A stretch of DNA of 64,000 nucleotides, from contig NC_057751.1 in NCBI RefSeq assembly GCF_004010195.1, positions 4,301,137-4,365,136 of the forward strand, read 5' to 3'. A program made the translations under genes and the position numbers. Of this stretch, positions 23,393 to 50,400 are shown piece after piece. The notes beneath the pieces were generated by a model. That model was not told where the DNA came from. It searched no databases and was given only the letters and a program-made list of their open reading frames with translations. Source of the stretch: Chiloscyllium plagiosum (taxonomy: Eukaryota). The first letter of the stretch is position 1. Every line of letters starts with the position of its first letter.

Positions 23393-23685
23393 ATATCTTG
23401 AATGTGTGACCCTCCATTCACCCCTCCATCCCTTTGCTCTGAGGTGACGGCCCTCTGGTCCAAGACTCTTCCACAAGGGGAAGGGGCGTCCGTCGGAATT
23501 CGCCTCATCCGACCTCCATGTGACTGCAGACTGACAGCCATGTGCTTGACCCGGAACGCCTGGAGAAAGCAACGAAAGAGGAGTTATGGAGCATACAGTG
23601 TGGAAACAGACCAGCCTGTCCATGCCAACCAGACGTCCCAATCTGATCTAGTCCCACTTGCCAGCACTTGGCCCATACCCCTTGA

Positions 23686-24210: not shown

Positions 24211-24221
24211 CTGTTCTCTGA

Positions 24222-25750: not shown

Positions 25751-25900
25751 ATGGACTCGCTTGAAGATCAGCTGGAGCTGCTTCTGAAGGGAGAGGGCAT
25801 TGGAGTGCAGGGCTACATCTCTCCCCTGGAAGAAGTGGGGCTGCTAACTGTGCAGAAGACAGTCTGCTACATCGTCGCTGCAGTCATACTGAATGAGCAG
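25751..25900 (+). pseudogene. NUDT18: NUDT18 coding exon 1, copy A
   Basis: ATG...GAGCAG|gtaaga, 50 codons MDSLEDQLELLLKGEG...VILNEQ; upstream acceptor tttttacag| at 25619. Confidence 0.8.
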
Positions 25901-27189: not shown

Positions 27190-27815
27190 AGTTTGCGTTA
27201 CAATTGGACAGGGTGGTTGAGAAGCTGTTTAGCATGCTTGCCTTCATTGCTGAGACCTATGGTGGAACATCATGTTGAGATTGTACAGGATATTGCTGAG
27301 ACCTCTTCTGGAGTACTGTGTTCAGTAATAGGAAGGGCACTTTTAAGTTCAAGAGGCTTTAGATGAGATTTACCAGGATGTGGCCAGGTGTGGAAGCTTT
27401 GAGTTACAAGGAGAGGCTGGATAGACTGGGACTGTTTTCACTGGACTATAGGAAGTTGAGGGGTGACCTTATAGAGGTTTATAAAATGGTGAGGGGTATA
27501 GATAAAGTGAAGGGCAGGTGTCTTTTCCCTATGGTGGGGGATGTCAAGACTGGGGGTCTTTTGTTTTAGGTGGGAAGAGAAATATTTCAAAGATATGAGG
27601 GGCAACTTTTGTATACAGAGAGTGCTTCATTGGTGGAATGAACTTCTGGCAGATACGAGAACAGTTCCAACATCTAAAAGATATTTGAATAAGTAAACGA
27701 ACAGGAAAGATTTGGAGGGATGTGGGCTCATTGCAGGCAAATGGGACAAGTTTAGTTTTGGAGGATGGTCAGTGTGGACTAGTTGGACTGAGGGGTCTGT
27801 TGCTGTGCTGTATGA
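27190..27815 (+). mobile_element. CR1-type LINE 3' fragment
   Basis: ORF RFTRMWPGVEALSYKERLDRLGLFSL. Confidence 0.82.
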
Positions 27816-29041
27816 CTTGAAGGGAAAATGTTTGCAAGGCTGTATGGATCAATTCACTAAAATGCCAGCACAGGGTTGATGGGCCAAATAGCCGCCCCTT
27901 TTGTTGTATTATGCTGTACAATATGCAAAGAAACTTTGCAGCTTGCTGATTCGTTTCCCTTGTCCTGCAGGCATTACCTGTTGATGTCCTTGCCCTCGTC
28001 AAGAGTTCAAGAAACCTGGGCTTGATGTACTGGAGCACCAAGCTCTGGTTCTTCAATGGTCGATCCCACTTTGTCAATGACACTGTCCTTTTTTTCAATG
28101 GTATTCCCTGAATGTAGCAATGTCTCTTCTGTCACCTGCCCATGAGAAGTTCGAGAAAATTGCATTCTCTCTCATGTTTTGTTCTGAAATGGTGGAACAG
28201 TGATCTGTGTTCACAAGAGCATGAAGTGTGTCCTCTGGAGGTGTTGCTGGTCCCGCGATGTTGTTGCTTGTTTTCTTTCTGGCAGTGGCTGCACTTTGTC
28301 CGAAAGACCATTCTCTCTCCAAGGATAGGAGCTCTCCATGGAGTCCAACACAAGGGGTGCCCACTATGAGATCATGAGCAGTAGGAGCCCAATCTCGCCC
28401 TTCAGCACCTCGAGTGTGCTGCACCGTTCAGTAAAATTCTGGCTGTTCCTCACCCTCAGTTCTCCCTCAGTGCAATGGAATTGTTCAGCTTGCTGGGACA
28501 GGGCCATCGCAGGCTTGGCTTTAGCATTGACACTGGTCTCAAGAACCTTTGAGCAGTTAGCAGTGAAGCAGGAGTGTCTCTCTGGCACTTGGGTTGTGAG
28601 TATTAATTAGTATTTGGGCCAATTAAGCTGTTGATTTTCACTGGGTGTGTGATGTCTCTTCCTCTGATTGACCTGAATTCTCTTCTCTTAAAGACACTAA
28701 CTGTTATGGGACAGCCATTGGCAGCAGGAGTCCTGGTGGATCCTTCACTTTGTGGAACAGAGGTGCTGTGTCGGATTGTCTCAGCATGCCAGGCCGATGC
28801 CCTGGTTGAGATCAGGTAATCTGGTTCCTTCTGACTCTGTCTGGCTTTGTGGAGGCTCACTGGGGGATGAGGGTGGTTCTGGATGTGACAGGCTCATGTG
28901 TTTTGTACAGGCCTTTTCTGTGTTTCCATTCCATTTAGTTCGCTAAAGCTCGCAGCATGACTGTTCATATGTTTTCGGGCGGTGAGCTGCTGCTTCTCAA
29001 GGGTGACTTTATTGAAGAATGCCCTTTTTCCTCCCGGAGAC

Positions 29042-29191
29042 ATGGACTCGCTTGAAGATCAGCTGGAGCTGCTTCTGAAGGGAGAGGGCATTGGAGTGCA
29101 GGGCTACATCTCTCCCCTGGAAGAAGTGGGGCTGCTAACTGTGCAGAAGACAGTCTGCTACATCGTCGCTGCAGTCATACTGAATGAGCAG
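29042..29191 (+). pseudogene. NUDT18: NUDT18 coding exon 1, copy B
   Basis: Appears identical to copy A, with the same |gtaaga donor. Confidence 0.8.
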
Positions 29192-30165
29192 GTAAGAGGA
29201 GAGTTCCTCACTGACCTGCAGCCCTGTTAGCATTGGGCCTGTCAGGAACACAGTCCCGATCTGTGTGTGCCATAGTATCCCACTGCTGGCACTGTGGCTG
29301 CTCTCCCTGAAACTTCGACACAGTGTGCCTGGACTTGTGTGCACAGGGCACAATGTCAGTATTTGTCAGCAACACAAGATGTATTGAGGACAGGAGGACA
29401 GTGATACATTTTGAGAGGTTGGAGAAGTGGGCAGACTGGTGGCAGATACAGGTGAATGCAGAGAAGTGTGAGGTGGTCCTGCTGCCTTTCACTCTTCCAA
29501 ATGCAAAGCTCCACTCGTAAATGGGCGATACTGGAGCAGAGTGGATAGAAAGTTGACAGGGCACATTGAGAAGGCAGTGACTGAGGCATACAGGACCTTT
29601 GTCTGGATTAGAGTGGTACTGGAAAAGCACAGCAGGTCAGGCAGCATCCAAGGAGCAGGAAAATCGATGTTTCGGGCAAAACGCCTCCATTTTCATGCTC
29701 GTTGAATGCTGCCTGTCCTGATGTGCTTTTCCAGTACCACTCTAATCCAGACAAAGGTCCTGTATGCCTCAGTCACTGCCTTCTCAATGTGCCCTGTCAA
29801 CTTTCTATCCACTCTGCTCCAGTATCGCCCATTTACGAGTGGAGCTTTGCATTTGGAAGAGTGAAAGGCAGCAGGACCACCTCACACTTCTCTGCATTCA
29901 CCTGTATCTGCCACCAGTCTGTCCACTTCTCCAACCTCTCAAAATGTATCACTGTCCTCCTGTCCTCAATACATCTTGTGTTGCTGACAAATACTGACAT
30001 TGTGCCCTGTGCACACAAGTCCAGGCACACTGTGTCGAAGTTTCAGGGAGAGCAGCCACAGTGCCAGCAGTGGGATACTATGGCACACACAGATCGGGAC
30101 TGTGTTCCTGACAGGCCCAATGCTAACAGGGCTGCAGGTCAGTGAGGAACTCTCCTCTTACCTGC
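29188..30165. repeat. Inverted repeat with arms of about 470 bp, centred on a Penelope-derived palindrome (about 29596-29757) and running into an N gap
   Basis: Position 29188 pairs with 30165 and 29602 with 29751; the mirrored ORFs in the track are near-identical. Confidence 0.9.
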
Positions 30166-30689
30166 NNNNNNNNNNNNNNNNNNNNNNNNNNNNNNNNNNN
30201 NNNNNNNNNNNNNNNNNNNNNNNNNNNNNNNNNNNNNNNNNNNNNNNNNNNNNNNNNNNNNNNNNNNNNNNNNNNNNNNNNNNNNNNNNNNNNNNNNNNN
30301 NNNNNNNNNNNNNNNNNNNNNNNNNNNNNNNNNNNNNNNNNNNNNNNNNNNNNNNNNNNNNNNNNNNNNNNNNNNNNNNNNNNNNNNNNNNNNNNNNNNN
30401 NNNNNNNNNNNNNNNNNNNNNNNNNNNNNNNNNNNNNNNNNNNNNNNNNNNNNNNNNNNNNNNNNNNNNNNNNNNNNNNNNNNNNNNNNNNNNNNNNNNN
30501 NNNNNNNNNNNNNNNNNNNNNNNNNNNNNNNNNNNNNNNNNNNNNNNNNNNNNNNNNNNNNNNNNNNNNNNNNNNNNNNNNNNNNNNNNNNNNNNNNNNN
30601 NNNNNNNNNNNNNNNNNNNNNNNNNNNNNNNNNNNNNNNNNNNNNNNNNNNNNNNNNNNNNNNNNNNNNNNNNNNNNNNNNNNNNNNNN
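30166..30689. other. Assembly gap (other gaps at 17897-17932, 38247-38745 and 47691-47750)
   Basis: Runs of N. Confidence 1.
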
Positions 30690-30946
30690 AAAAGAGACGT
30701 AAGGGGCAACTTTTTCATGCAGAGGGTCGTACGTGTATGGAATGAGCTTCCAGAGGATGTGGTGGAGGCTGGTACAATTGCAACATTTAAGAGGCATTTG
30801 GATGGGTATATGAATAGGAAGGGTTTGGAGGGATATGGGCCGGGTGCTGGCAGGTGGGACTAGATTGGGTTGGGATATCTGGTCGGCATGGATGGGTTGG
30901 ACCGAAGGGTCTGTTTCCATGCTGGACATCTCTATGACTCTATGAC
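30690..30946 (+). mobile_element. Young CR1-type LINE 3' end with (ctctatga)n tail
   Basis: KRDVRGNFFMQRVVRVWNELP...GRWD*, near-identical to 49237-49500. Confidence 0.88.
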
Positions 30947-30964
30947 TGACCTTTCTTGTCTGAG

Positions 30965-31178
30965 AAAGAGATGGTGATTATGCAAGAGGTGAAGCCGGAA
31001 TGCTACAGCAAGTGGTATCTACCAGCAGGAAGGATGGAACAAAATGAACCCATTGTCCAGGCCATCGAGAGAGAGGTCCCGGAGGAAACCGGCCTTGTTT
31101 GGGACCTGGAAACCCTGCTGAGTGTGGAGGAGAGGGCTCCCCACTGGGCCCGCGTTGTCTTCATGGTCAGAGTCACAG
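30965..31178 (+). pseudogene. NUDT18: NUDT18 exon 2 (Nudix box)
   Basis: 214 nt, phase 0 to phase 1, |gtttgc donor; the acceptor is an unusual tgag|. Confidence 0.85.
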
Positions 31179-31184
31179 GTTTGC

Positions 31185-32025
31185 ATCTCTCCGTCAGTGT
31201 CGAGGGATTGGGAAAGCTGGTGCTGGGTGATACTGAGTGCAAGTCACTGTCAGGTGATCAATGTGACAAGGTGGCAGACTGGGTGGATGAGGTTCAGTGA
31301 GTGTGAGCTGCTGCATTTTGATCAGAAAGATAATGAAATAGGGGCGTACAATTCAAAAGTTGCTCCAGGAGCAGGGGCACCTGGATGTGTATGTGCACAG
31401 ATCACTGAAGGTGGTAGGAGAGGTGAAGACAGCAGTTAATAAACACACAGTGTCCTCAGCTTTATTAATAGGGGCATAGAGTACAAGGTGATGTTGAACT
31501 TGTACAAGACCCTTATTCAACACCAGCTGAGGTCGTCTGTCCAGTTGTGTTCAGAAAGATGTGAACACGTTGGAGCGAGAGGACAGAAGAGATTAACAAG
31601 GCCAGTTGCAGGGATGAGAAACTTCAGTTGTGAGGATGGGTTGATGAAGTTGGGTCAGTTCGCCCTGGAGGGAAGATGGCTGAGAGGGAGATCTGAGTGA
31701 GGTTTCCAACATCATGGGTGGGCTGGAGATAGAGAGAGAGGGAGGGGTTGTTCCTGTTTGTAAAAGAAGCAGGAACGAGCGGGGAAAAGGTTTAAAGAGA
31801 GGTGCAAAGGGTGATGGGAGGGAATTGTTTTCACCCAGAGAGTGGTTAGGGTGTAGAATATACTGCCTGGAAATGTGCAGGAGGCAGGGTCAATTGGGGC
31901 ATTGCATGGTTATTGTGATAGAAATGCTGAGCAGGGATATGGAGAAAAGGTACAAGATTGACATGAGATAGTATAGACACAATGGGCCTAATGGCCTTCT
32001 CCTATGCCATACCCATTCTGTGATT
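31185..32025 (+). mobile_element. Old CR1-type LINE remnant
   Basis: MLNLYKTLIQHQL and other degenerate ORF2 traces. Confidence 0.6.
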
Positions 32026-32689
32026 CTGAGCAGTGGTGAGGTGGGGTTGGTGCTTTGAGCGTCAAACAGTATAGCACAGGAAAAGGCCCTTCGGCCCATG
32101 ATGTGTCAAATTAAACTGATCCCTTCTGCCTGCCCTTGGTCCATATCCCTCCATCTCTTGCCTGTTCATGTGCCAATCCAAAAGTCTCTTAAATGCCCCT
32201 GCCAGTCTGCACTCCCACCCCTGGCAGCAGGTTCCCCACTCCTACCACTCTCTGTGTAACAAACTCACCCCCTCACATCTCCTTTGAACACTTCCCCCCC
32301 TCACCTTATATGCATGCCCCTCTCTGATTAGACATTTCAACTCTCGGAAAATGATTCTGACCGTCAACCCTGTCAATGCATCTCATAAATTTATAGACTT
32401 CTAACAAGTCTCCCCTCGGCCTCTGCCACTCCAGAGAAAACAACCTGAGTTTTTCTAGCCTCTCCTTATATCTCCAACCCTCTAATCCAGGCAGCATCCT
32501 GGTCAACCTCTTCTGCACTCTCTCCAAAGCTTCCACATCTTTCCTGTAATGTGGTGACCAGCCTTATAAAGCAGCAGGATGTACTCATGTGGTCTTATAC
32601 TCAGTTCCCTGACCAATCAAGGCAAGCAAGCCATACTCCATCTTTATCACCCTGTCTACTTTCATGGACACTTACATGGAGTTATGTAC

Positions 32690-33020
32690 TTATTAGAATC
32701 CCTACCGTGTGGCAACAGGCCCTTCAGCCCAACAAGTCCACACCGACCCTCTGAAGAGTAACCCACCCAGACCCATTCCCCTACCATATATTTGCCCTTG
32801 AGCTACACATCCCTGAACACTATGGGCAATGTCGTATCGCCAGTTCACCGAACCTGCACATCTTTGGATTGTGGAAGGAAGCTGGAGCACCCAGAAGAAA
32901 ACCACGCGGACACGGGGAGAATGTGAAAACTCCCACACAGTCAGTCGTCCAAGGCTGGGATCGAACCTGGGTCCCTGACGTTGTGGGGCAGCAGTACTAA
33001 ACACTGAGCTACTATGCCAC
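32690..33020 (-). mobile_element. HE1-like V-SINE inserted in a CR1
   Basis: Homologous to 23063-23392; splits the CR1 ORF2 remnant. Confidence 0.82.
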
Positions 33021-33841
33021 ATAACTTGAACCCCAAGATCCCTCTGTACATTAGTGCTATTCAGAGTCCTGCTCTTAACTGTATATATTGCCTTAACATT
33101 TGATCTCCCAAAGTGCAGCACCTTACACTTGGACAAATTAAACTCCATTTGCCATTTCTCTCCTCATGTCTGCAACTGATCTGTATCCTGCTGCACTATC
33201 CCCAACTTCACCGATCTTTGTGCCGTCTGCAAACTTACGAACCCACCCATCTATCTTTTCATCCAAGTCATTTATGTTTCACAAACAGCAGATGTCCCAG
33301 TATAGATCCCTGCTGAACATCACTAGTCACGGACCTCCAGCCTGAAAAACACCCTTTCACCACTACCTTCTCTGGGCAAACCAGTTCTGAATCCATGTGG
33401 CCACAACACCGTGGATCCCATGCCTCTTAATCTTCACAATGAGCTTATCATGAAGGACCTTGTTGAAAGCCTTAACAAAACCCATGTAAACAACATCACC
33501 TTTGTCACCTCCTCAAAAAATTCAATCAAGTTAGTGAGACCTGACCTGCCCTGTACAAAGCCATGCTGACTGTCCCTAATTAGGCCACCCTTTTCCAAAT
33601 GTACAGACGTCCTATCCCGAAGAATTCTTCCCAATGGTTTCCCAATGACTGATGTGAGAATCACCGGTCTCTCGTTTCCTGGATTACCCCTCGTTCCCTC
33701 CTTGAACAGAGGAACAACATCAGTTACTCACCAGTCCTCCGGGACCTCTCCAGTGACTAGTGAGGACTCAAAAATTTTGATCAAGGCCCCAGTGATCACC
33801 TCTGTTGCCTGTCTCAGTAACCTGGGGGAGATACCATTGGG

Positions 33842-34024
33842 GATGGAAATGTGTTGCTGGAGAAGCGCAGCAGGTCAGGCAGCATCTAGGGAACAGGAGA
33901 ATCGACGTTTCGGGCATTCAACGTCGATTCTCCTGTTCCCTAGATGCTGCCTGACCTGCTGCGCTTCTCCAGAACACATTTCCATCTCTGATCTCCAGCA
34001 TCTGCAGACCTCATTTTCTCTTCA
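33842..34024 (+). mobile_element. Palindromic Penelope-derived element with a centrally deleted hammerhead core
   Basis: Inverted arms and an exact 14-bp TSD GAGATACCATTGGG (33828-33841 / 34025-34038). Confidence 0.85.
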
Positions 34025-34494
34025 GAGATACCATTGGGCCCTGTGGACTTTCCATCTTTATGTTCTTCAAGAGACCCGACATCACTGCTTTCGAGATCTC
34101 AAAATGCTGTAGGATATTAGGATGCTCCACGCTGATCTCACTAACTTCCATATCCTTTGAGGTGACTACTGAAGCAAAGTACTTATTTTGGGTCACACCC
34201 ACATCATCTGCCTCCAAGCACAGGTTCCCTCCTTTATCCTTGAGTGGTCCCACCTTTATCCTTGAGTGGTCCCACCTTTACCCGCACTATCCTCTTGTTT
34301 TTAATGTCTGTACAGAATGCCTTGGCTTTTGTGCTTTCGCTTATTGACTTGAAACGGAGACAGTTTTCATACGTCATCATTCAGCTTACTTTGGAGATAA
34401 GCATCATTCACAATGAGAATTTTTAGCTGTTAAACGGGGTGGGGTGCAATTGTCATGTCTGAGTGTGAAATTACTGACGCGATTCTGTTTGCAG

Positions 34495-35069
34495 GAGGAA
34501 CTCTGAAGAGCATGTCAGAGAGTGATGTCAAATCCTTGCAGGTGAAGTGGTGGGATAGAGTGTCGCCCACTCCCCTCTGAGCCAGGGACATCTTAAATCT
34601 CATCTCCATTGCTGTGAACTACAAGGAGAAGTGACTGTGCTCATTGAGATGTCCTGCTCCCTTGTCTGTCACAGGGTCTTGGTGGCCTTTCTCAACAACA
34701 GCAATGACCTCTGGAAGCTGGCTAACAACCAGGAGTGGCCTTACTTCACCGTGACGGCTTGCGGCTTGTCCTCTGCCGAGCTCTCGTGCGGCGTCGATGT
34801 GGAGCAGGGAATGCCTGAGGGAATCGCAGCTCAGGCTGCAAATACACAGCATTCTGAGTTTGCAGCACACTCGTGCGGTCTCTGGGAAGACCGACAGGGT
34901 CTGCTTCAATGTCCTGGTCACCATCGCCCCACTGGAAGGCACGTACAGCCAGTTCCCTCTCGATATCAGCAGTGTGACATATGCCTGGCACCGAGTCCAC
35001 AATGACAATTTCAAACTTCAGTTGCTGGAGAGGTTGTCCTTCTGTTTTGTTGTGCCTTTCTTGAATTAA
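34495..35069 (+). pseudogene. NUDT18: NUDT18 exon 3 with a premature stop and two frameshifts
   Basis: ttgcag| acceptor. Homology runs through three reading segments and ends ...LLERLSFCFVVPFLN*. Confidence 0.85.
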
Positions 35070-36712
35070 AATCTGGTGGGAAATGATGGAGGAGCGACCA
35101 CTTTCATTGTGTCGATAGACTTCCATCAAGCAACTGGATGCTCTGAACAGGAATATTGATGCTGGGGTGGTGTCATTCCCTTGACCGAAAACACTGAGAC
35201 GAGAGCACAAAATGCAGCCCAAGTGTTGGTTGCAGGGATGTCAGCATCATCTTTCGATTGGCTGCAACGCAAGGCCACACACTCTTTAACCAAATCGATT
35301 TAAATGGATGCATTGGCTGGCTCATAACTCCATCTGAGGGCAGGCAAAAGCTTGCCAGAGCAAATGAGTGAATGTGTGTGTGTGAGGGGAGTGAGTGAAC
35401 AGGTCCTGGCTGAACAGATGCAACGCCAACGTGGAGTTTGAATGTACTGGTGCAGTGTGTGGTTTGTTGTGGACAGACTTGAGAAATTTGTGTCAGGTCT
35501 CTCCCCCTCTTCACTACCTGACCTGAAGCAGATTGTTCTTTAATTCCCTCCTTATTTTTTAGTCAAAGATAAAAACACCAGATAAATTTGTCCCCTCCCC
35601 TGTATTAATGGACCCCTGCCTTCACAAGGACTACAGTACCAGTGCAGTGAAGTTCATCAGTCAGTTCAGACTTAAAGATTCAACTGAGGGACACCAGATG
35701 ACTATGGCCTGGGTGTAAAAGGCCCATGATGTGTTAAATCAGCCATGTCCACATTGAATAGGGGGGGTTAGGCTCGACAGGCTGAACGGCCTACTCCTGT
35801 CCCTCTGTTTAACCATGTCCTTGTTCTCTGTGGAGATGGCAGCCTGGAATTGCAAAGCTAACCAGTAGTTGGGAGTTGGAGGCAGTTTCTTGTCTTTAGA
35901 CATCCTTGTGAAAGGTTTTTCAGGAAGTTAGACTGAATTGTGACTTGTGCTTCCCTGTGTTGACGAAGGGAGAGCTGTTTCTGTTTGAAACTTGCTGGGA
36001 GAACAAATATCGGGTTGACAGCTGTTTTTTCTAATTTATGTACCAGAGGATTTTCTGTTGTTGCCTGGATGATGAGTTTTGTCAGTGAATGTGGTGTAGA
36101 GCAGCATTGATCCCTTTTACTTCATCCCCCCTGCTGTTTCAGAATTACACAGAGGCAGCCTCGCTTGGATAAGTCGATTTGGACGCAAGTGGGAACACAG
36201 TACACTGGAGGATAAAATAACTGTAAGTGTGAGTGAATGTTCACATATTAGCTCTTTGGTATTAAAATGGGATCTTGTTTGCAAGTTGAACGTTCAGAAA
36301 TTGAGTACTGCCTGTAGTTACCATTGAGTCATTTTGGTCCATTGCAGAGGTAAACTCAAAAGCGATTTACACATGGTCTTCTAAGGTTGGTCGAGCCAGC
36401 AATTTGGTTGCATTGGGTTTTCTGTTCTTGGATATAATCACTTCTATCAGAGCTTAGAGTACAATAATTAGTATTCCAGTCTCATCAGGAGATATAGGAG
36501 CATTGACAGTGTCAGATAATCATCCAGTTACAAATAGACACCACACACAGATCGTGTGAAATTGATGAATACTGGTTTATATCTCACAACATGGAGGAAG
36601 AGAAATTGACAGGGACTGGTACCGAACGGACACTCTGCACAGTAAGTCAAGGGTTCTCCTCCCTGAGCTGCAGGTACAGATAGTTGTGTAGTGTTAATTA
36701 CAAGCCAATATA

Positions 36713-37898
36713 AATTGCATTACATTCCATGGAAAACAATCAGTTATCTGGTAGTATCAATCAGGTAATAATTGTAACTGGAGGTTCTGTTCCTCTGCCA
36801 GAGCAGGGGCCCCTAGCCCCACTCCCTCCCATTTATCTCTCCAACCCGAGGCTCCCAGCCTCATTCCTGATGAAGGGCTTTTGCCCGCAATGTTGACTTT
36901 CCTGCTCCTCGGGTCCTGCCTGACTTGCTGTGCTTTTCCAGCACCACACACTTGACGCTAATCTCCAGTATTCTGGTTTCAATGGGTCTGCAGGGTAGTG
37001 TGGATTCTTGTCAGATATCTAGGTGCTACTCAGTCGAGGTAGGCTTTGTGGGGTTTCAGTACCTGAGGAGGCTGGGGATGCCCTCAGGGCTGCTGGAGTG
37101 GTGATGCTGTTGAGGAAGGAAGTCTGTTATCAGATCATCTGAGGAGTGTATTCCTTCAGTCTGGAAGCCGTTTAGGTAATGTCTTGTTTTGCTTTTTAGT
37201 TCCTGAGCTGGTTGTCGTGAAGTTGAGGGATTATAGAACAAAGAAAGAAAATTTACAACCCAGGAACAGGCCCTTCGGCCCTCCAAGCCTGAGCCAATCC
37301 AAATGTACTCTCTAAACCTGTCGATCAATTCCTAAGCATCTGTACCCCTCTGCTCCCCACTCATTCAAGCATTTGTCCAGAATTACATTACATTCCATGG
37401 AAAACAATCAGTTATCTGGTAGTATCAATCAGGTAATAATTCTAACAGGAGGTTCTGTTCCTCTGCTAGAGCAGGGGCCCCTAGCCCCACTCCCTCCCAT
37501 TTATCTCTCCAACCCGAGGCTCCCAGCCTCATTCCTGATGAAGGGCTTTTGCCCGCAATGTTACTCTCCTGCTCCTCGGATGCTGCCTGACTTGCTGTGC
37601 TTTTCCAGCACCACACACTTGACGCTAATCTCCAGTATTCTGGTTTCAATGGGTCTGCAGGGTAGTGTGGATTCTTGTCAGATAGCTAGGTACTCAGTCG
37701 AGGTAGGCTTTGTGGGGTTTCAGTACCTGAGGAGGCTGGGGATGCCCTCAGGGCTGCTGGAGTGGTGATGCTGTTGAGGAAGGAAGTCTGTTATCAGATC
37801 ATCGAAGGAGTGTACTCCTTTCGTCTGGAAGCTGTTTAGGTAATGTCTTGTTTTGCTGTTTAGTTCCTGAGCTGATTGTGGTCAAGTTGAGGAATTAT
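36713..37898. repeat. Direct duplication of about 520 bp (36713-37234 / 37381-37898) flanking a short minus-strand CR1 3' stub; each copy contains a PLE pLTR
   Basis: Direct comparison of the two copies, which differ by scattered substitutions. Confidence 0.88.
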
Positions 37899-39824
37899 GG
37901 GTATGCTCTGTTTAGCTAAGAACAGACATGGTTTCTGTGAACAAGTAGTGGGCAGGCAGAGTAGTTTATTTTTCTCCCACAGACAGTCTGACTGATGTTG
38001 ACATCTGAGAAACTTCGGGAGGGCTAGAATCCAGTCCACGTAATGATTTAATGTGCCTTCAAAATAGTTAATGAACCCATGTATCTGTGCCTTGAATCGG
38101 TTTTTACTCCACTTGTGAGAATGCATGTGTCCCCAGCAGTGAACAGGTCAGTTTTTAAACTTTATCTCTCATTCCCATAACCGTGAGGTGATGCTGGGAA
38201 AGCTGATTAGCAAGATTATGAATGTTCCTTCTGTGATCTTGACCTTNNNNNNNNNNNNNNNNNNNNNNNNNNNNNNNNNNNNNNNNNNNNNNNNNNNNNN
38301 NNNNNNNNNNNNNNNNNNNNNNNNNNNNNNNNNNNNNNNNNNNNNNNNNNNNNNNNNNNNNNNNNNNNNNNNNNNNNNNNNNNNNNNNNNNNNNNNNNNN
38401 NNNNNNNNNNNNNNNNNNNNNNNNNNNNNNNNNNNNNNNNNNNNNNNNNNNNNNNNNNNNNNNNNNNNNNNNNNNNNNNNNNNNNNNNNNNNNNNNNNNN
38501 NNNNNNNNNNNNNNNNNNNNNNNNNNNNNNNNNNNNNNNNNNNNNNNNNNNNNNNNNNNNNNNNNNNNNNNNNNNNNNNNNNNNNNNNNNNNNNNNNNNN
38601 NNNNNNNNNNNNNNNNNNNNNNNNNNNNNNNNNNNNNNNNNNNNNNNNNNNNNNNNNNNNNNNNNNNNNNNNNNNNNNNNNNNNNNNNNNNNNNNNNNNN
38701 NNNNNNNNNNNNNNNNNNNNNNNNNNNNNNNNNNNNNNNNNNNNNNTAGCTGTAATTTAATTCAGGGTGATAGTGAACTGATTGCTGAGTAAGATCAAGT
38801 GCAAACTCCGTGATAACTGTAGGGAGTGCCACCAGAGGCTGCTGGGTTTTACAGCTTGAAACAAAACAAAACCCCAAAAATACAAACAACCTTATACATC
38901 TGTGGTGGGATTTGAACCCAAACTCTGTCTCTTCACAAGTCCATTACTTTTCCTCTGTGCTACCAGTACTTTCACACTCACTAAGCTTTGGAGAGTAAAC
39001 TTATCATTTGATTAAGTAACACAGCTCTCTACAGCAGATATATAAATTCAGAGACATCCCCAAACCTCCAGGGTACACATGGACACACCTGGTAAGAGTA
39101 AGGTCCTTGGCGGAGGACATGCTGAGAGACACTGGTTCAAAACTGGACTACACTTTTTACAATTTAGTTGTTTACAACAACCAGAATTAATCCGAGAATA
39201 AAGCAGTTTGCAAGTTCACCATCTTCAGTCTTCGTCCATTGACAACCCTCCTGCCAGAGTAATCCTATCACACAGAGTGTCATTCCTCAGTACCCGTCTC
39301 ACCCAATGCAACAACTGGGAAGGGGCTTCTCATTTCTTGGGTACTGTCCACTGCAACATCTGTCTCTCTCTCACCGGTCCAATTCAGGATCATTTTGAAT
39401 TTCCAAGTGCTGAGCAGCCTCTCATTGGGTTCTACAAGCCTCTCCATGATAGATGGAGTGAAGCACCATCCTGTGTTTGCTGTGTATATCCACTTAACTA
39501 ATTCCACCCCCACCGACCCTCATGTCACATTACATCTTCTGTGCCCCCTGCTTGTTACACTTTGCAAATTGAGACATTTGACAAAAATTGCTTCATACAA
39601 TTTTCTAAATGGCCAGCTTCTCCCTCCTCAACAATCAATTCCAGTGTTTTCCTGTGGCTTCACATCTCCTGCTTTCTTGAACAGAGAAAGTGTCACATTA
39701 GACTTGTCAGAATCTGGGGAGTTCTGGAAGCTGATTACTCATGCAGCCAATCTCCAGAGCCACTTCTGCCCATTCTGGGGGGAGCTGCAGATGAAGGAGG
39801 GGGATGGGGTGGAATGATCAGCTC

Positions 39825-42010
39825 GTGATCGGTGAATACAGATACTGGGTCCAACCTGATTGGTCAATGGGAGGGATGAATCAGTAGCTACCCCCACCCC
39901 CAGTCCTGAAGAAGGGTGACTTCTGAAATGTTGACTTCTCCAGCTCCTGCTGCTGCCTGGCTTGCTGTGTTCTTCCAGCCTCCTGCCTGTCTACTCTTTA
40001 TGTTAGATCCTCTGCTTTCATCCTGAAACTCTCCCACATGCAAACATGATCTCCCTTAGTCTCTTGGAGGTTCAGTCTGGAACCTACACTAACAATCTGG
40101 TCAGCAGACTCTACTCAGTTGAAGTGAATTATATTTTGATGGGACATGACAGAGTAGGTGCAGGAAGGCTGTTTTCCCCTGGCAGATCACAGTCTGGGAC
40201 CAGGGTCACTATCTCGCAACAAGCCGTTTGGCAAGGAGAGAGGGAGAAACTCTTCACTCAGACAGCTGAATCATGGGAATGGTCTATCCCAGAGAGTTGT
40301 GGGAGCTCAGCCATTGACAGAATGTTCAACAGGAAACAACACCGGTCAACCCTTGTAAAAACACCAAGGACTAAAGGAGAGAGTACAGGAAACTGCACTG
40401 AGGGAGAAGATCAGCCAAGTGTTGGGAGAGCAGAATGGTAGAGGGTGCGAATGGTCTTCACCTTTCCAAACCTTCCTGTAAAACAGCTGATGGGTCATAT
40501 TCCCTTCTCCTTCCACAGACCTCTCTGGGAAATAGGGCTGGTCACGAGAGAACCAAAATACTGTCTTTCTCTCTCTCTTCCCACTCAAACCTGAAGCTCA
40601 GCTATCAGTGGCTGTCTTCCTTTCTGAACACAAAATCTGCCCAGAAGTGATATCGCCCAGGGGTCAGGAAAAGAAGAAACAAATCGAAGAAACAAATCCA
40701 AGTTATTCTGAAGCCTGTGACATCTCGCGAGACAAGGGAAGTCAGTGCACGGAACATACGACCTTGTCCCCTCCAAGCCGTTAACCATCCTGATGAAAAA
40801 ATACAATTGTCATTGTTTCACTGTCACTGAGTCAAAAACTACATCACTAACTGCATAGTTTGTCCACCTCCAGTATGTAGACTGTGCTGGTTCAAGAAGG
40901 CAGCTCACCCCCCACCTTCTCAAGGTGATAGGTGTATACAGATACTGGGTCCGACCTGATTGGTCAATGGGAGGGATGAATCAGTAGCTACCCCCACCCC
41001 CAGTCCTGAAGAAGGGTGACTTCTGAAATGTTGACTTCTCCAGCTCCTGCTGCTGCCTGGCTTGCTGTGTTCTTCCAGCCTCCTGCCTGTCTACTCTTTA
41101 TGTTAGATCCTCTGCTTTCATCCTGAAACTCTCCCACATGCAAACATGATCTCCCTTAGTCTCTTGGAGGTTCAGTCTGGTCAGCAGAGTCTACTCAGTT
41201 GAAGTGAATTATATTTTGATGGGACATGACAGAGTAGGTGCAGGAAGGCTGTTTTCCTCTGGCAGATCACAGTCTGGGACCAGGGTCACTTTCTCCCAAA
41301 TAGCAACAAGCCGTTTGGCAAGGAGAGAGGGAGAAACTCTTCACTCAGACAGCTGAATCATGGGAATGGTCTATCCCAGAGAGTTGTGGGAGCTCAGCCA
41401 TTGACAGAATGTTCAACAGGAAACAACACCGGTCAACCCTTGTAAAAACACCAAGGACTAAAGGAGAGAGTACAGGAAACTGCACTGAGGGAGAAGATCA
41501 GCCAAGTGTTGGGAGAGCAGAATGGTAGAGGGTGCGAATGGTCTTCACCTTTCCAAACCTTCCTGTAAAACAGCTGATGGGTCATATTCCCTTCTCCTTC
41601 CACAGACCTCTCTGGGAAATAGGGCTGGTCACGAGAGAACCAAAATACTGTCTTTCTCTCTCTTCCCACTCAAACCTGAAGCTCAGCTATCAGTGGCTGT
41701 CTTCCTTTCTGAACACAAAGCCTGCCCAGAAGTGATATCGCCCAGGGGTCAGGAAAAGAAGAAACAAATCCAAGTTATTCTGAAGCCTGTGACATCTCGC
41801 GAGACAAGGGAAGTCAGTGCACGGACCATACTACCTTGTCAGATGACAAGTTCCCCTCCAAGCCGTTAACCATCCTGATGAAAAAATACAATTGTCATTG
41901 TTTCACTGTCACTGAGTCAAAACTACATTCCTAACTGCATAGTTTGTCCGCCTCCAGTATGTAGACTGTGCTGGTTCAAGAAGGCAGCTCACCCCCCCAC
42001 CTTCTCAAGG
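39825..42010. repeat. Head-to-tail tandem duplication of about 1.1 kb (39825-40924 / 40925-42010)
   Basis: Duplicate ORFs in the track; the copies differ by small indels. Confidence 0.9.
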
Positions 42011-44471
42011 GGCAACTAGGGACGGGCAATAAGTGCTGGGCCCAGCCAGCAGTGCACAAGTCCCATGAGGGATTTTATTTAAAAAGGTCTCGTCTTGAAG
42101 GATTTAGACTTCCTCTCATTCTTTTGTGGTTCCAAACCAACAAGTCCCTCCCCTGGAGCACTGTGGGCATCAGAACATCAACCGTGCTAACAGCTTGTCG
42201 AATGAAATATTGCTGCTGCTTTTCACATCCTTGTTCTAAGCTGGGTGTGAACAAGTTGGTCTGTGTGCAGTGCAGGGACTCGGTAATCTGGTTACAAAAC
42301 TGGAGACAAATTGATGCTCAAAATCACAAAACTGTACCAAGGACTGGGCAGTTTCACATTTCAGTCTCACTCCAACACACAGCAAATGAAAACACCAAGG
42401 CAGCACATTTGTTAGACTCGGTTTAATTCCATCTTTCTTTTTAAAAAATAGCTGAGATGTTTTAAAACTATCCGAATGTATGTTAGGTCATGAAATATTG
42501 CGACAGAAAAATATATCTATTTCTTACAGTCTGCTTCAAGTTCGGGTTGAACACTGATGGGAAGGCGATGCTGTGTCCTGGGAAGCAGGGTGGTGCTCAC
42601 AAAAGGGGATTTGCCGGGCGTTAGGAAGAAAGGGATCAAGCACCTGGGAACTGTGGGCATCTTGCAGAAACCTTGTCAGGATGGGTAAGGAGTCAGGGTG
42701 TGGAGTGTGTGGGGGATGCACACTTCCTTGGGCCAGCTGACCTGTGATGCTGAGTCTGTTGGCAGACTGCCTGGAGCTTTGACTCCACAACCTCAGGGAA
42801 TAAGTTAATACACCACAGCACCCCCACCTTTCCCGCTGAACAACAGGATCCTGGCTGATCTGACAGACCGATCGAGAATCTCTCTACCCAGTCTTAAATA
42901 TACACCACAAGCCAAATTTTCATCAAATCAGAAATATCAACAATTGAAAGGAGAACACAGCAAAAAAAAACCTTTTTTTGTACTCAAGTTGAGGTCATTT
43001 TTTGATTACACGGCATTCACTGAGAAACACAGAAGCAGATATGGGCCATTCGGCCCTTTGGACCAGAGACGGCCAAATGGGTGGAATTTTGGAGCAATTG
43101 GGTCTGACTGACTGGGAATACGGAGTGCAGTCAGCCATTGTGGAGAATGGGAGTTATCCCTAACCTATTCCAAACCTCCTCCATGGAATTCCATCACATG
43201 AACAGATGCTTCCTGAATGACAGCACTGTTCTGGCCCTATGCGGTCTCCCTTCCAGATCACCAGCTCAGCTCCCAACTACACAGAGACTGCCTTCAGTTA
43301 CAACATCCTGTCCCTGAGGCTCAACATGGTCAGTCAGGTGAGGGGACCAATGGGACACTGCAAAAACTGCACCTCAGTCATGTGCAGGATTCCCTCTGTT
43401 CATTAATGTTACTCTCACACACCTCCCCCACTGCCTCCGTCCACTTCACCCCAGCCTACACAGGGAGGAGGGGCGCTCAGTTGGCTGGATGGCTGGTTCA
43501 CGATGCAGAGTGACACCAACAGCTAGTTCGATTCCCACCTCGGCTGAAGTTATCATGGAGGTCTCTGATTCTTAATCTACACCTTCCTCCCTGAGGCATC
43601 GTGATCCCCAGGTTAAACCTCCACCAGTCTCCCCTCTCTCTGACAGCATGCTAACAGGATGGAGACTTCACCTTGTTTCGAGTGTAGCATCGCTTCTGTG
43701 CTGTGACTGAAGAGGATTCTTCCCCCTGCCCCATATCAGGATCACTACCACCACGTACACTTTCACTCCTTGTGTGTCAGGGTTTGAGTATGACATTAGG
43801 CATCTGTGAGTGGAGATGTGTTAGAATATTCCGGGACTCCCATTCCCAGTCTGCTCCAGTTCACCGATCCGGCAAAAATGGGAGAGCTCGACAATAGGAG
43901 GTGCCAACATGGAGGCAAGAGGAGGAGGAATTCTGCTCTCCTGAACCTCAACCTTGACTGGGAAATGCCGAGGGGGGTGGGGACGAACCTGCCAGGGCCC
44001 ATTAGTGCGGACTGGTCATTTGTGGACAGGACCAACAGGCTGAGAGGGAACAGTGCAAAGCTGGTCTAGCCTCTATGTGACTCCAGGCATCAGGTTCCTG
44101 GTTCAACTAGCCTCCCCCCCTACTCCAACCTCTGCAAATGTTCACAGGACAGAACAAAGGGCTGTGGGGTGGATGGGAGAAGAGGAGGATTTGGTTCATC
44201 TCCCAACCACATTGGATGGATTTATTGGGAGTGTTTCTGAAGATAAAGCATCCCTTCCCAAAGAGTACAGGACAACCCCCATTTAGGAACCTCCACACCC
44301 ACCCACCCACCTCCCAGCTCCTGACAGCTGACAGCTTGGGAGGTGCCAAGGTCCCACTCCACAGGAGCTCGACAAGTGCATAGTCATGGCATTGTCACCC
44401 AATACCAACATCCGAAAGAGTGCCCACATCTAAATGTCTTGTGCCATTTGTTCTACCCGCTGTGCCAGGCC

Positions 44472-44541
44472 TCAAATCTGTGCCCAGGACTCTGTTAACT
44501 CTTGTACTCGCGTCTCCAGAACAGCACGCATGACTGAATAC
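44472..44541 (-). CDS. RASSF2: RASSF2-like terminal coding exon
   Basis: (K)[25 protein letters not shown] at 44474-44472. Confidence 0.78.
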
Positions 44542-45117
44542 CTGCAGAGACAAACACCATCATGTCTCATTGTCCATCCTCAATGACAGTGTGGCACTCC
44601 CTCAGTACCACCCCAGGGAAGGGGGGGTTCAGCAGTGGGATATAATAGTTATCAGCGTCAGGGACAGTGTGGCACTCCCTCAGTACCACCCAAGAAAAGG
44701 GGGCTTCAGCAGTGGGATATAATAGTTATCAGGGTCAGGGACAGTGTGGCACTCCCTCAGTACTGCATTACAATTTCCTATGTAAACGAGTCATGCTGCT
44801 GTTACAAACACATTCAAAGAGGTAACGTCAGGGAGATGTATTACAAATTACTGAGTAATTCTCTCAATTAACCCAATGGCCAGAGCTCTGACCAAAGTTC
44901 AAGTCGTCGTGGTTCAGGTGTTAGTTCTCTGACCTGGACTCCCTTCGTGTCCCACTCTTCCCTCGGCCCAACAATTGAAACTCACAAAAAATGTGAAACA
45001 GACCGGGACAAGAACTCACTTGCGTATTAATTTCTTCACCTCTCGATCTTCCTCTTCCTTCAGTTTGACAACGAAACTCTGCAGCACTGGCATTTCAAAC
45101 TTGATATACTGGGCAAC
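44472..45117 (-). CDS. RASSF2: RASSF2-like C-terminal SARAH domain: two exons (45117-45020 and 44541-44472); upstream exons not found
   Basis: Spliced translation is [55 protein letters not shown]. Splice sites ggccag|, |gtgagt and ctgcag| are canonical and the frame is intact. Confidence 0.82.
44585..44765. repeat. Tandem repeat with a unit of about 77 bp (2.3 copies) in the SARAH intron
   Basis: gacagtgtggcactccctcagtac occurs three times. Confidence 0.85.
45020..45117 (-). CDS. RASSF2: RASSF2-like SARAH exon (98 nt)
   Basis: [12 protein letters not shown]...DREVKKLIR, phase 0 to phase 2. Confidence 0.85.
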
Positions 45118-45784
45118 CTGGCCAAAGGAGAGAGAGAAATACCTGAAGCATCAGTTGTCCTGAAGCAAGCCAGTGATTTCACTCTGAAAACACTGGGGAC
45201 AGAAGCAAGGGAGAGCCATTAGAAACAACTGTTTGGCCCTGCACGAGACACACCTATTCCCCTCCTTACATCCGGCACTTCCAGCTCGGATCCAATAGGG
45301 AAGATGGATCCTGTTTTCATCAATCTTAGATGTGTTGGTGTACGCATTTCTGATTAGAATGGAAAATTCCCATATAAACATGTCACATTGTAATGATACC
45401 CTCCTGCCTGTGGTGGCATTGCAGCACCTTAGCTATGCCTTTCCTTGCCCATTCTCCTGCCTCCAATTCTCCACTTGATGTCAGTTATTCCCAGTTAACT
45501 ATAGTATGGTTACAACACCAAAGGAAAGGCTTCAACCCTGAATCCCCAGAACATGACCTGTGTTTAAGGATTAATAGTCTAGCGATAATATTACACAGCC
45601 ATCATCTCTTATTGGGTCTTAGACATGTCTTGTTTCCTTCATCCATCATGAGTCTCCTACAGCCCCTGTCAATTGGTTAAACCTATGAAACTGCAGAGGA
45701 TTCCTAATTGCAAGCAGACTCACCTAGAACCCTTGACAGGCACTGAGATCACTGAGCCAACACCCAACATGAAACAGCAACTTT

Positions 45785-46400
45785 TGGAAAGATTTGTAAC
45801 TCAGGTTGAGGTTCTGGATGTAAGTTTGCTCCCTGAGCTGGAGGTTTGTTTTAGACGTGTCGTCACTATACGAGGGAACATCATCTGTGAGCCTCTGATG
45901 AAGTGCTGGTGGTATGGCTCACTTTCTATTTACATGTCTTGGTCTCTTAAGGTGGGTGACATCATTTCCTGTTCCATTTCTCAGAGGGTGGTAAATGGGG
46001 TCCAGATCAATGTGTTTATTGATGGAATTCCCATTATAATGCCAAGCTTCTAGGAATTCCCATCTCTGTCTAGCCTGTCCCAAGATGGATGTGTCGTCCC
46101 AGTCAAAGTGGTGTCCTTCCTCATCTGTCTGTAAGGATACTAGTGAGAGAGGGTCATGTCGTTTTGTGGCTTGTTGATGCTCATGTATCCTGGGGGCCAG
46201 TTTTCTGCCTGTTTGTCCAATGTAGTGTTTGTTATAGTCCTTGCATGGTATTTTGTCAATGACATTAGTTTTGCTTGCTTTTCCGACTTGCTTGTATTGA
46301 GAGAACTGTGAAAGATGATCATTCGGGGATCTACAAGATGCCACTTGTTTGAACATTCTTAGACAGAAACCATTCACCTATCGTTGTGACTGAAGTTTCT
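45785..46400 (-). mobile_element. Penelope-like element (second family): GIY-YIG endonuclease end plus pLTR
   Basis: ORF KIPCKDYNKHYIGQTGRKLAPRIHEH...EFLEAWHYNGNSINKH; decayed hammerhead-like core at 45854-45887. Confidence 0.88.
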
Positions 46401-46777
46401 CAACCTTGCAACCATTCTCATTGACCGCTTCTGCACAGAATCCCCATTTTCCTCAACAATGTGGCGCCCACACTTGTACACAATCCCCCAGCGGAGTTGA
46501 TTGGCAACTTAACTTGCAACTGAAAACAATGCTCCTTTACTGGTCTGTTGACTCCCATGTGCTCTTTCCTCCATGTAGCTATTTCACACAAATGCACAAC
46601 TCTTTGGCACAATTAATTGACGGCACATGGCTATCACTGGCTGGACTTGCCTTTATTGTCCACTCTGAGTTGCCCTTAAGCAGAACCTATTTGAGAGGGA
46701 TGGACAAGAGGCTGCAGTTTCCACATCCAAAACAACACTACTCAGAGACTCCAAGAAGAGTGAGAGAGAGTGAGTTG

Positions 46778-46783
46778 TTTATT
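46778..46783 (-). terminator. Candidate DDHD2 polyadenylation signal
   Basis: Minus-strand AATAAA about 620 nt after the stop. Confidence 0.45.
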
Positions 46784-47399
46784 GCTGGTACAAAAGGTAA
46801 CATTGCATTAGGTTCCCCTGATAGTCCGCCCTTCCTCCCCTCCCCCAGAGTCAGTGCTGCATTTCTCTTTGGTGTGAGCGCACAGCAGTTAGACAACACA
46901 GCCTGACAGCAGTCCAACTTGGGAACCTTGTTCGTCGGTCGCTTCACTGGGAGTTTCATTTTCTGAATCTCAAGAGGAAACTCATTCATCAAATGAGACA
47001 TGGTTCTCCTCAAACCTGCTCATCACCCAAATGGAATTTTAACGTGAAAATAAATAAGCCTGTGTAGATTGGTCCATGTAGAGTCACCTTGCGTTGTCCA
47101 TACAGCCCCCTCATCAGCAGACAGGATCCAGTTGTGAGTTTGTGGGTGAGTCATTTCCCTTTGTCTCCCCCATGGATGGGTCTCTCTGGGAACATGCCTG
47201 CCATTAGCTGTTCAGACAGGTTGGCCATCAGACCTGAGCTCCAGGTCCTGTGGAAGATACACACAGACAAAGTTGGGATCAGTTCAGTGTTCTTGCAGCG
47301 CCTGGAGAAGCGGAGCTCGATAAGGAATGACAGGCAATGTGCTCTGGCTCCTGTTAATGTCAATCTGATGGGTGGTGGGGGCTCTCTGGTCGAAAGCCA

Positions 47400-47481
47400 T
47401 CAGTGCTGCACTTGTTCCAAGGTGACTCCCAGCATTTGGTAGATTTCCTTCAGAATTAACAGTGCCGTGTCTTCAGACTCC
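47400..47481 (-). CDS. DDHD2: DDHD2 last coding exon ([27 protein letters not shown])
   Basis: ttgcag| acceptor; TGA at 47402-47400. Confidence 0.9.
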
Positions 47482-50400
47482 CTGCAATGACCAGACAACA
47501 GGATTAGCTCAGTTCCGGAAAGGATGAGGACCGCGTTTTAAACAGCAGAGGGAAACAACAGGGACAAGGATTTTAAACTGTTCAATGGTCTGACAAGATC
47601 TAAGAGTGCATCACAACACAGGGCTGCTGAATGGAAATAGTGATCAGACAGGCAATGGGACAGGGGGAATCAGACAGACATGGGTGGGGGNNNNNNNNNN
47701 NNNNNNNNNNNNNNNNNNNNNNNNNNNNNNNNNNNNNNNNNNNNNNNNNNGGATGGGGGACTGGGGGGGTCAGACAGACGGGGGGGACTGGGGGGGGGAA
47801 TCAGACAGATGGGGGACTGGGGGATCAGACAATCTGAGCGGTGCAGAGGGAGGTCAGTCCCTTGACCCTGTAGCCCACCCCTTACACACACTGCCCTTAC
47901 CAATAACAGAGGTGACTCTGCAGAGCAAACAGGTACTCGTTAAAACTCTCGATGGGTTTCTCCTGTAGCACGTAGTCAATCCGATCTCCTCCATTCAACA
48001 TTCCTATCTTTACCTGTTCCTTCTCCTCCTCCTGCACTGGGCAGCTGCTGTCTGTCTCCTCACCAGCTTCAAGACAAACACAGCAATACCTCAGACAACA
48101 ACCAACTGTGTGTTTGTGTATGTGTGTCACTCACTCACTCGCTCGCTGGGTCTGTCTGTCTCACTCAGACCCTCATCCTCTCCAACCCATGCATAGGAAT
48201 TTTCCTGCTCTGCTCCTCTCACATGGGAGGGGCTGACTGACCAGGATTCTCCCCCATCTCCCCCCCCCAAATCAGCCTACCTTTCACAGGTTGATGTGTT
48301 AGAGCAACTCAGGGAGGACACACACACACACAGTTACAAAGTTGTAGGCATGTATTGTACCTTTGAGAGAGAGTGAAAGCTGCTCAGGACTGACTGCAAG
48401 CACAGAGTGTGCTGAAAAATGTGAAACAAATAGCTGAAACAGAGTTGCTATGTTCCACAACAATTCAAATTGAGCCATTTAAATTATGCCCCAAGATACT
48501 AAAATCCAATCGCATTTGATTTTTACTGTTTTACTGTTTTGACGACATCAAACCAATCAATGACGATCCTCTGTTTTGGGGTATAAAAATCAGACATTTT
48601 GAACATTTAGCCAGAGCAGCAAAGAGCACCAACAGACTGCGCCCGCAGAGATGCCCTCGGAAAGGACCTGTTCATATGAAATCTGTGCAGAAGACTGAAG
48701 AAAAGACCCAGGAAAATCGACACAGGAAAATAGACGGCTGGTTTTGAAAAGTGATTTTTTTGTTAACTTAATCGGAGGGATTTTATCAGCTCAGTATACT
48801 GTCGGAGACTGGGAGGTAGATAAATCACTGGGACAAAGGAGGTTTGCAGAATAGATAGTTGTTGGTTAATGTTCTCTTCTTTCTTGGAGTTAATGAATAA
48901 ATTGTTAATTTTTTCTTTAAGTAGTGGGATTTGGTAGGTCTTTGTCATTCACACTTTAACAGATAAGGGCATGGGGTGAGGTTTTCTGTGGTGTCTAATT
49001 TAAATTAGCAGAAGGGTTTATATGTCGTAACAGACCCACTGCACCCTCCTACCCCTAATCCACGGTCACCAAATCCTGAGCGAGGACTCAAACCCAGAGC
49101 TTCTGACCCACGGGAAGGGGCACTGCCCACTCCCTGAGATGTGCATTCACATCGCACCCATAAGATAATGAGCTGTCACAAGGAGCTCTGTGGGAGTACT
49201 GTAAACCTTAGAAACCATACCAAGCCACATGGGGCCATAGAGTCATAGAGATGTACAGCATGGAAACAGACCCTTCGGTCCAACCCATCCATGCCGACAA
49301 GATATCCCAACCCAATCTAGTCCCACCTGCCAGCACCCGGCCCATATCCCTCCAAACCTTTCCTTTTCAAATACCCATCCAAATGCCTCTTAAATGTTGC
49401 AATTGTACCAGCCTCCACCACTTCCCCTGGCAGCTCATTCCATACACACACCACCCTCTGTGTGAAAAAGTTGCCCCTTGGGTCTCTTTTATATCTTTCC
49501 CCTCTCACCCTAAACCTATGCTCTCTAATTCTGGACTCACCCACCCCAGGGAAAAGACTTTGCCTATTTATCCTGTCCATGCCCCTCATAATTTTGTAAA
49601 CCTCTATAAAGTCACCCCTCAGGCTCAGACGCTCCAGGGAAAACAGCCCCAGCATGTTCAGCCTCTCCCTGTAGCTCAAATCCTCCAAACCTGGCAACAT
49701 CCTTGTAAATCTTTTCTGAACCCTTTCAAGTTTCACAACATCTTTCCGATAGGAAGGAGACCAGAATTGCATGAAATATTCCAACAGTGGCCTAACCAAT
49801 GTCCTGTACATCCGCAACATGACCTCCCAACTCCTGTACTCAGTACTCTGACCAATAAAAGAAAGCATACCAAACGCCTTCTTCATTATCCTATCTACCT
49901 GGGACTCCACTTTCAAGGAGCTGTGAACCTGCACTCCAAGGTCTCTTTGTTCAGCAACACTCCCTAGGTCCTTACCATTAAATGTATAAGTCTTGCTAAG
50001 ATTGGCTTTCCCAAAATGCAGCACCTTGCATTTATCTGAATTGAACTCCCATCTGCCACTTCTCAGCCCATTGGCCCATCTGGTCCAGATCCTGTTGAAA
50101 TCTAAGGTAACCCTCTTTGCTGTCCACTACACCTCCAATTTTGGTGTCATCTGCAAACTTACTAACTTTACCTCTTATGCTTGCATCCAAATCATTTGTG
50201 TCAATGACAAAAAGTAGTGTACCCATACCGATCCTTGTGGCACTCCACCGGTCACAGGCCTCCAGTTTGAAAAACAACCCTCCACCACCACCCTCTGTCT
50301 TCAACCTTTGAGCCAGCTCTGTATCCAAATGGCTAGTTCTCCCTGTATTCCATGAGATCTAACCTTGCTAATCAGTCTCCCATGGGGAACCTTGTCGAAC

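Follow-up and report, generated by a model that had tools for sequence, protein, structure and literature searches.

A near-identical second version of the RASSF2 3' end next to DDHD2 in Chiloscyllium plagiosum, probably a recent partial duplicate

Two small exons encoding a SARAH helix lie behind DDHD2, on the same strand, in a stretch of 64,000 nucleotides of the Chiloscyllium plagiosum genome (hereafter the window, G000:C42:4301137-4365136, where C42 is the scaffold carrying it), which raises the question of which gene they come from and whether they are used at all. The initial annotation offered four answers, namely that DDHD2 is nested within an intron of RASSF2, that DDHD2 and the SARAH exons form a chimeric transcript, that the exons give a SARAH-only micropeptide, or that they are a partial duplicate or a misassembly. 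The last of these was borne out, as a near-identical second copy of the RASSF2 3' end was found, which is read either as a second locus or as an assembly double.

The two exons, described initially as having canonical splice sites and an open frame of 55 residues with a stop, were recovered at exact coordinates (Table 1). They are separated by a phase 2 intron, and their 168 nt encode 55 residues followed by TGA. [quoted passage not shown] The named relatives of this exon among the 120 listed of its 197 matches are RASSF2 proteins; it is identical to the shark RASSF2 P0015 at 31 of 33 residues, and exon B matches the C-terminus of the same protein. The paralogous loci on scaffolds C38 and C2, which we take to be RASSF4 and RASSF6, are far less similar to the exons than RASSF2 is. 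The earlier view that the exons are closest to RASSF2 is upheld by these named matches and by the alignment with shark RASSF2. A PDB sequence search with exon A gave a chance match only (E 0.54). Polyadenylation signals are present in the copied UTR at 44226 (AATAAA), 42427 (ATTAAA) and 42079 (AATAAA), the latter two having been placed at about 42422 and 42074 before.

An essentially complete RASSF2 gene is located on the same scaffold and strand, 610 kb away, at C42:4,955,000-4,975,000. A profile search for SARAH returned seven matches, three of which represent the same exon (in the window, at C42:4955739 and on the small contig C23979), and tblastn of P0015 against 200 kb around the second site on C42 revealed nine ordered minus-strand exons spanning 4974990-4955189. 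RASSF2 exon 2 was found on contig C56275, and there is a 6.6-kb gap at its expected place in C42. Upstream of the full gene, at C42 5.08-5.095 Mb, there are exons which, judging by their motifs, we take to be SLC23A2-like, the human gene order being assumed. Presumed synteny of RASSF2 and PRNP prompted a prion-family search, which gave no match but did not recover its control either.

The search with full-length RASSF2 that had been proposed initially thus located both the upstream exons and a second SARAH copy at C42:4.955-4.975 Mb, and one half of a refuting outcome named in that annotation, a complete RASSF2 elsewhere, was observed. Ras-association exons were absent from the window, where the P0015 tblastn matches are the two SARAH exons only, in agreement with the previous inspection by eye around DDHD2; just one set of them exists, and it lies at a distance of 610 kb with SARAH exons of its own below it. 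In consequence, the idea that DDHD2 sits within a same-strand RASSF2 intron is refuted. Orientation is all that speaks for it. In a nested arrangement, exons of the host flank the guest and the host has no other 3' end, but 3' exons belong to the full RASSF2 itself, and the only upstream exons that exist stand in normal order directly above them. At both positions where the window copy differs, the full-gene SARAH exons encode exactly the residues of the shark RASSF2 proteins.

Table 1. Features of the window and of the complete RASSF2 gene on the same scaffold; positions without a scaffold name refer to the window.
Feature	Position	Strand	Remarks
NUDT18-like pseudogene, later exons and 3' flank	30915-38246	plus	inside the block present in two versions, the other one being on C91465
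500-N scaffold gap at which one version is joined to the other	38247-38746		left side continues via C73625 to the full RASSF2; right side continues C91465
Block matching the full RASSF2 3' end and flank	38747-46277 vs C42:4950249-4957281		94-96% BLAST identity outside Penelope
Copy of the RASSF2 3' UTR region	42074-44471	minus	45 mismatches in 2361 columns and 10 indel events vs the full gene
Exon B, second version of the final RASSF2 coding exon, stop included	44541-44472 (70 nt)	minus	AG acceptor; 70/70 bases as in the full gene
Exon A, second version of the penultimate RASSF2 exon, where SARAH begins	45117-45020 (98 nt)	minus	AG acceptor and GT donor
Penelope fragment common to the RASSF2 intron	~45780-46277	minus	GIY-YIG match E 0.035, below cut-off; repeat copies genome-wide
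DDHD2 last exon, stop (47402-47400), 3' UTR and flank	46278-47481	minus	own AATAAA at 46783 and 46657
Full RASSF2 exons	C42:4974990, 4965909, 4965258, 4964203, 4963028, 4960603, 4959653, 4955837, 4955257	minus	tblastn with P0015

Within 42000-45682 the window and the full gene differ by 69 substitutions (1.9%). Apart from the UTR (Table 1), the differences amount to 0/70 in exon B, 17/475 in the intron between the exons, 2/99 columns in exon A, 19/659 in the upstream intron and 38/490 in Penelope, and the divergence across the whole two-version block is steady at 1.9-2.6%. Within 7.5 kb, the full-gene copy carries two private insertions of about 290 bp each which the window block lacks; in the region C42:4951344-4952729, a 286-bp insertion private to the full gene consists of two head-to-head repeat halves and has a 12-bp target-site duplication. 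Segmental duplications are defined by a length of at least 1 kb at an identity of at least 90%, and the block extends over 7.5 kb of the window at 94-96% outside Penelope, reaching about 18 kb, NUDT18 pseudogene included, when the unplaced contigs C91465 and C73625 are added. By contrast with this two-version state, a single match was obtained for each upstream RASSF2 exon, including the nearest one, which lies 2.3 kb beyond the junction.

At three places, three versions of the sequence were found: window, C23979 and full gene at the first; the tandem units 39825-40924 and 40925-42010 and the full gene at the second; and the tandem units 36713-37234 and 37381-37898 and C91465 at the third. The pairwise distances in unique sequence are 11/913 between window and C23979, 10/911 between window and full gene, and 15/911 between C23979 and full gene; both the window and C23979 are without the SINE. 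Tandem or inverted near-duplicates of 94-99.8% identity lie near gaps in the window at 39825-42010, 36713-37898 and 25203-30165, and they are either under-collapsed alleles or real local repeats.

In the coding part, the window copy differs from the full gene by two substitutions in 168 bases, both in exon A, both non-synonymous and none synonymous: Ile to Val at 45072 and Thr to Ile at 45026 (plus-strand C and A in the window, T and G in the full gene). All 11 chondrichthyan RASSF2 proteins compared have Ile and Thr at these sites, and the full gene keeps both. Among 120 proteins compared, 114 have Ile and six have Val at the first site, while Ile occurs at the second in none, although this site is variable across vertebrates. 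By this comparison the window copy is in the derived state at both sites; contig C23979 carries the same Thr-to-Ile change and not the Ile-to-Val one. Two non-synonymous changes and no synonymous one in 168 nt are too small a sample for a test of selection. If each lineage has gained substitutions at about 1% and indel events at about 0.25% of positions, a neutral 168-nt copy usually stays open, and in about half of such cases a pair of changes would both be non-synonymous, so that the intactness of the exons indicates youth and not selection. The exons are therefore "intact", as annotated initially, in the sense of an open frame, but no more so than chance would leave a copy diverged by about 2%.

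On its other side the block meets DDHD2. The distance from the DDHD2 stop to the exon A acceptor is 2.28 kb without any N, as compared with the 2.3 kb of gap-free sequence given before, and it holds Penelope and the DDHD2 3' UTR, as had been stated; gaps lie at 38247-38746 and 47691-47750. Overlooked in the initial annotation, the two AATAAA signals of DDHD2 itself precede the copied block. The DDHD2 protein P0121 maps exon by exon across 63282-47403, the penultimate exon is 100% identical to that of a Hemiscyllium DDHD2, and a DDHD family search found one such gene on C42; from these identities a shark of hemiscylliid type is deduced. A second copy of 46278-47420 was absent among the 40 scored of 319 candidates.

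The match to the full gene stops at 46277, inside Penelope, which continues in the full gene, while in the window the DDHD2 3' flank begins there. Identity of the window Penelope is 89% to the full-gene copy and does not exceed 85% for any other copy scored, dozens of copies at 81-84% being spread genome-wide; no near-identical second copy was present among 40 scored of 7174 candidates. Given its 38/490 differences versus 19/659 in the adjoining intron, this Penelope fragment may combine parts of two copies as a mosaic. Changes common to the window and full-gene Penelope run to 46033 and then stop (11/19 vs 0/14, Fisher p 0.0005), but we do not count this test as evidence: its outgroup was the inverted arm, which in the right half is a close sister (three private changes versus 15 in the left). 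As a separate observation, the Penelope insertion in the RASSF2 intron (C42:4956785-4959514; L021:6785-9514) has inverted arms and starts a few bases past a splice donor, and its proximal arm bears many private changes.

A 500-N gap immediately precedes each version of the block. Aligned to window 30915-38246, contig C91465 shows 144 mismatches in 7146 columns; it continues for 3.2 kb more and ends on the base just before window 38747. Contig C73625, of exactly 3000 bases, differs from this 3.2-kb extension at 78 of 2998 positions, starts one base after window 38246 and ends one base before C42:4950167. From these base-to-base abutments two underlying paths follow: path B runs from a PLPP5-like gene through the NUDT18 pseudogene and C73625 to the full RASSF2, and path A from C91465 through the SARAH exons and the Penelope junction to DDHD2. 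In the window, the left half of path B is joined to the right half of path A. Since C91465 and C73625 abut the gaps with zero overlap, scaffolding cut the two versions and cross-joined them. Beside the full RASSF2, exons of a LOXL-family (lysyl-oxidase-like) gene lie at C42:4939397-4949567 on the plus strand and at 4824319-4824432 on the minus strand, so that the 500-N gap at 4949667 splits the gene and its two parts are in opposite orientation, which indicates that this scaffold join is wrong too. The C42 region, cross-joined at two 500-N gaps, should be annotated with caution; base-exact repair paths would be the window up to 38246 followed by C73625 and C42:4950167 onward, and C91465 followed by window 38747 onward.

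As regards the neighbouring genes, the NUDT18-like pseudogene extends over about 22400-35100 on the plus strand, with a CpG-island promoter near 22400-22800 and a NUDIX exon near 30950-31180; the NUDIX domain match was computed, and NUDT18 is the name that we presume. Its last exon in the window has a stop and frameshifts, as against an open last exon at C42:14.86 Mb with 75-80% identity, and the C91465 version has an extra stop in the NUDIX exon. There are also older second copies, as window 18000-20122 corresponds to C97830:19223-21358 at 90% and 22213-22985 to C32887 at 86%, the latter of which may be the promoter of an intact NUDT18-like gene. PAP2-family exons at about 6800-10673 on the plus strand, with a weak profile match, probably belong to PLPP5, a name we assume from human synteny (PMC7598661).

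Taken together, the block is, with moderate probability, a recent real segmental duplicate with dead pseudo-exons, partial gene duplicates of this kind being generally known from recent segmental duplications. A duplication of at least about 18 kb would have copied the RASSF2 3' end (part of an intron, the SARAH exons, the UTR and flank) and the NUDT18 pseudogene, and would have set the copy beside the DDHD2 3' flank. One breakpoint would fall within the older Penelope of the RASSF2 intron, produced by recombination with a second Penelope copy or by a non-homologous break. The copy lacks a promoter and Ras-association exons and is located behind the DDHD2 stop and polyadenylation signals, and for these reasons the exons are most likely pseudo-exons making no protein; at most they would be read through as an extended DDHD2 3' UTR, and they would look intact because the copy is young. 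The full gene, block, breakpoint position, substitutions and contig abutments are observations; we infer that the copy is silent and forms a second locus instead of an allele, as well as the origin of the break.

The principal alternative is that there is one RASSF2 locus, the window block being the other haplotype (a false heterotype duplication) after the assembler jumped from the intronic Penelope to a second Penelope copy behind DDHD2 or, in a variant, a real deletion allele generated by Penelope-Penelope recombination; we regard it as less likely. One diploid animal gives at most two versions per locus, so that three versions at three places require two loci or else more than one animal. 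Near-equal distances among the versions are what alleles drawn from several animals would show. The derived Thr-to-Ile change is common to the window and C23979, and both lack the SINE, which favours a second locus. The setting points the other way: the cut falls at one spot in both versions, 500-N gaps cross-join them, the block runs up to scaffold gaps, its junction lies in a repeat with excess Penelope divergence, the LOXL-family misjoin is nearby, and the tandem near-duplicates beside gaps resemble under-collapsed alleles. False duplications are described as common at contig boundaries, with gaps and repeats as their usual setting (PMC8081667), and the block is located at such boundaries and gaps. 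The same paper gives a heterozygosity of 0.1-1.6% for VGP genomes, which are of other species (PMC8081667), and the block divergence of 1.9-2.6% exceeds it. Moreover, the two-version state ends at a junction lying in gap-free sequence, no upstream RASSF2 exon has a second version, and the two insertions of about 290 bp are private to the full-gene copy; for the deletion-allele variant, more than 140 kb would have to be lost, including the RASSF2 5' exons and the SLC23A2-like exons. Public sequencing runs fit either reading, and no RNA run was among those listed as containing this sequence. Of the words sampled from 44000-47600, shares of 0.56-0.63 were present in 12 runs of organism A, 0.46 in one and 0.20 in another. 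The ceiling for an animal with just the full gene and the DDHD2 flank is 0.62, which would suit the absence of a second copy, but an allelic divergence of 1-2% lowers the share equally (C23979 has 716/1173 words), and we therefore give these shares no weight in either direction.

Two further explanations assume that the duplicate is used. In one, it serves as an alternative DDHD2 3' end, a phase 0 donor (54760 or further up) being spliced to 45117, so that the DDHD tail of the lipase/SAM protein would be replaced by a SARAH helix. This chimera is quite improbable and gained no positive support, even though the exons lie on the same strand 2.28 kb from the DDHD2 stop, have the same splice sites as the full gene and polyadenylation signals downstream, and the five upstream donors listed initially (60141, 58155, 57467, 57011 and 54760) were all verified as GT and phase 0, i.e., frame-compatible. 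The three nearest donors are not (53068 and 51383 are phase 1, 47900 is phase 2), and they would read exon A out of frame, with a stop after 6 or 18 codons; use of the phase 0 donors would skip four exons (residues 649-823 of P0121) and read through the AATAAA signals at 46783 and 46657. Both coding changes are non-synonymous. No protein with both DDHD and SARAH motifs occurred among 250 proteins compared. By Pfam annotation, a DDHD domain was seen in 0 of the 120 listed SARAH matches (of 197) and SARAH in 0 of the 120 listed DDHD matches (of 814), and none of the nine members of the hemiscylliid DDHD2 cluster, drawn from three species, ends in SARAH (seven have normal ends, one has a short different tail and one is an N-terminal fragment). 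Such absence from annotated proteins speaks weakly against the chimera. As a side observation, isoform X3 of Chiloscyllium punctatum DDHD2 (P0246, 749 residues) leaves the usual path after the exon equivalent to 51560-51383 and has a short non-SARAH tail. In the other explanation, a SARAH-only peptide of 47 residues would start at the internal Met at 45093 and act as a decoy of MST1/2. This is very improbable and likewise lacks positive support. This in-frame Met has a purine at -3, but it is also present in the full gene and in orthologues and thus is not a feature of the copy; no promoter-like CpG island is found above exon A (CpG observed/expected 0.17 and 0.29 versus 0.75 at the promoter-like island 22400-22800), and within a DDHD2 transcript the peptide would lie behind the stop.

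Human RASSF2 binds MST1/2 through SARAH (PMC2956732), and by analogy with human RASSF2 and RASSF1/5 (PMC2956732; PMC5361201), a hypothetical SARAH product of the window would be expected to bind these kinases. Were the chimera true, the helix could tether the lipase to MST1/2, and a lineage-specific lipase-SARAH chimera linking a membrane lipase to Hippo kinases would be a new gene at birth. Only a proven DDHD2-SARAH splice would have such wider interest, as a recent exon acquisition touching Hippo signalling; if it is a partial duplicate without function, or a double made in assembly, the block is of little importance beyond annotation. A literature search by title and abstract found nothing on this locus.

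Compared with known systems, the PAP2-family gene of the window converges on DDHD2 like the human pair at 8p11.23, where DDHD2 is forward and PLPP5 reverse with overlapping coordinates (PMC7598661). Unlike in the human pair, about 37 kb separate the two genes here, and their adjacency spans the gap joining two versions, so it is not established by sequence. The exons share splice sites and the UTR region with the full RASSF2 gene, whose proteins (P0015, P0249 and P0250) combine RA and SARAH; unlike these, the window locus is without a promoter, start exon and RA exons and has two residues changed that are fixed in chondrichthyans. With false heterotype duplications (PMC8081667), the block shares a diverged second version at contig boundaries and gaps, and it departs from them in having three versions at three places and a two-version state that ends at a gap-free junction. 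As a putative second locus, in its length of about 18 kb, its substitution identity of about 98%, its location on the same chromosome, its transposon breakpoint and its cut through an intron it resembles the partial gene duplicates found in recent segmental duplications.
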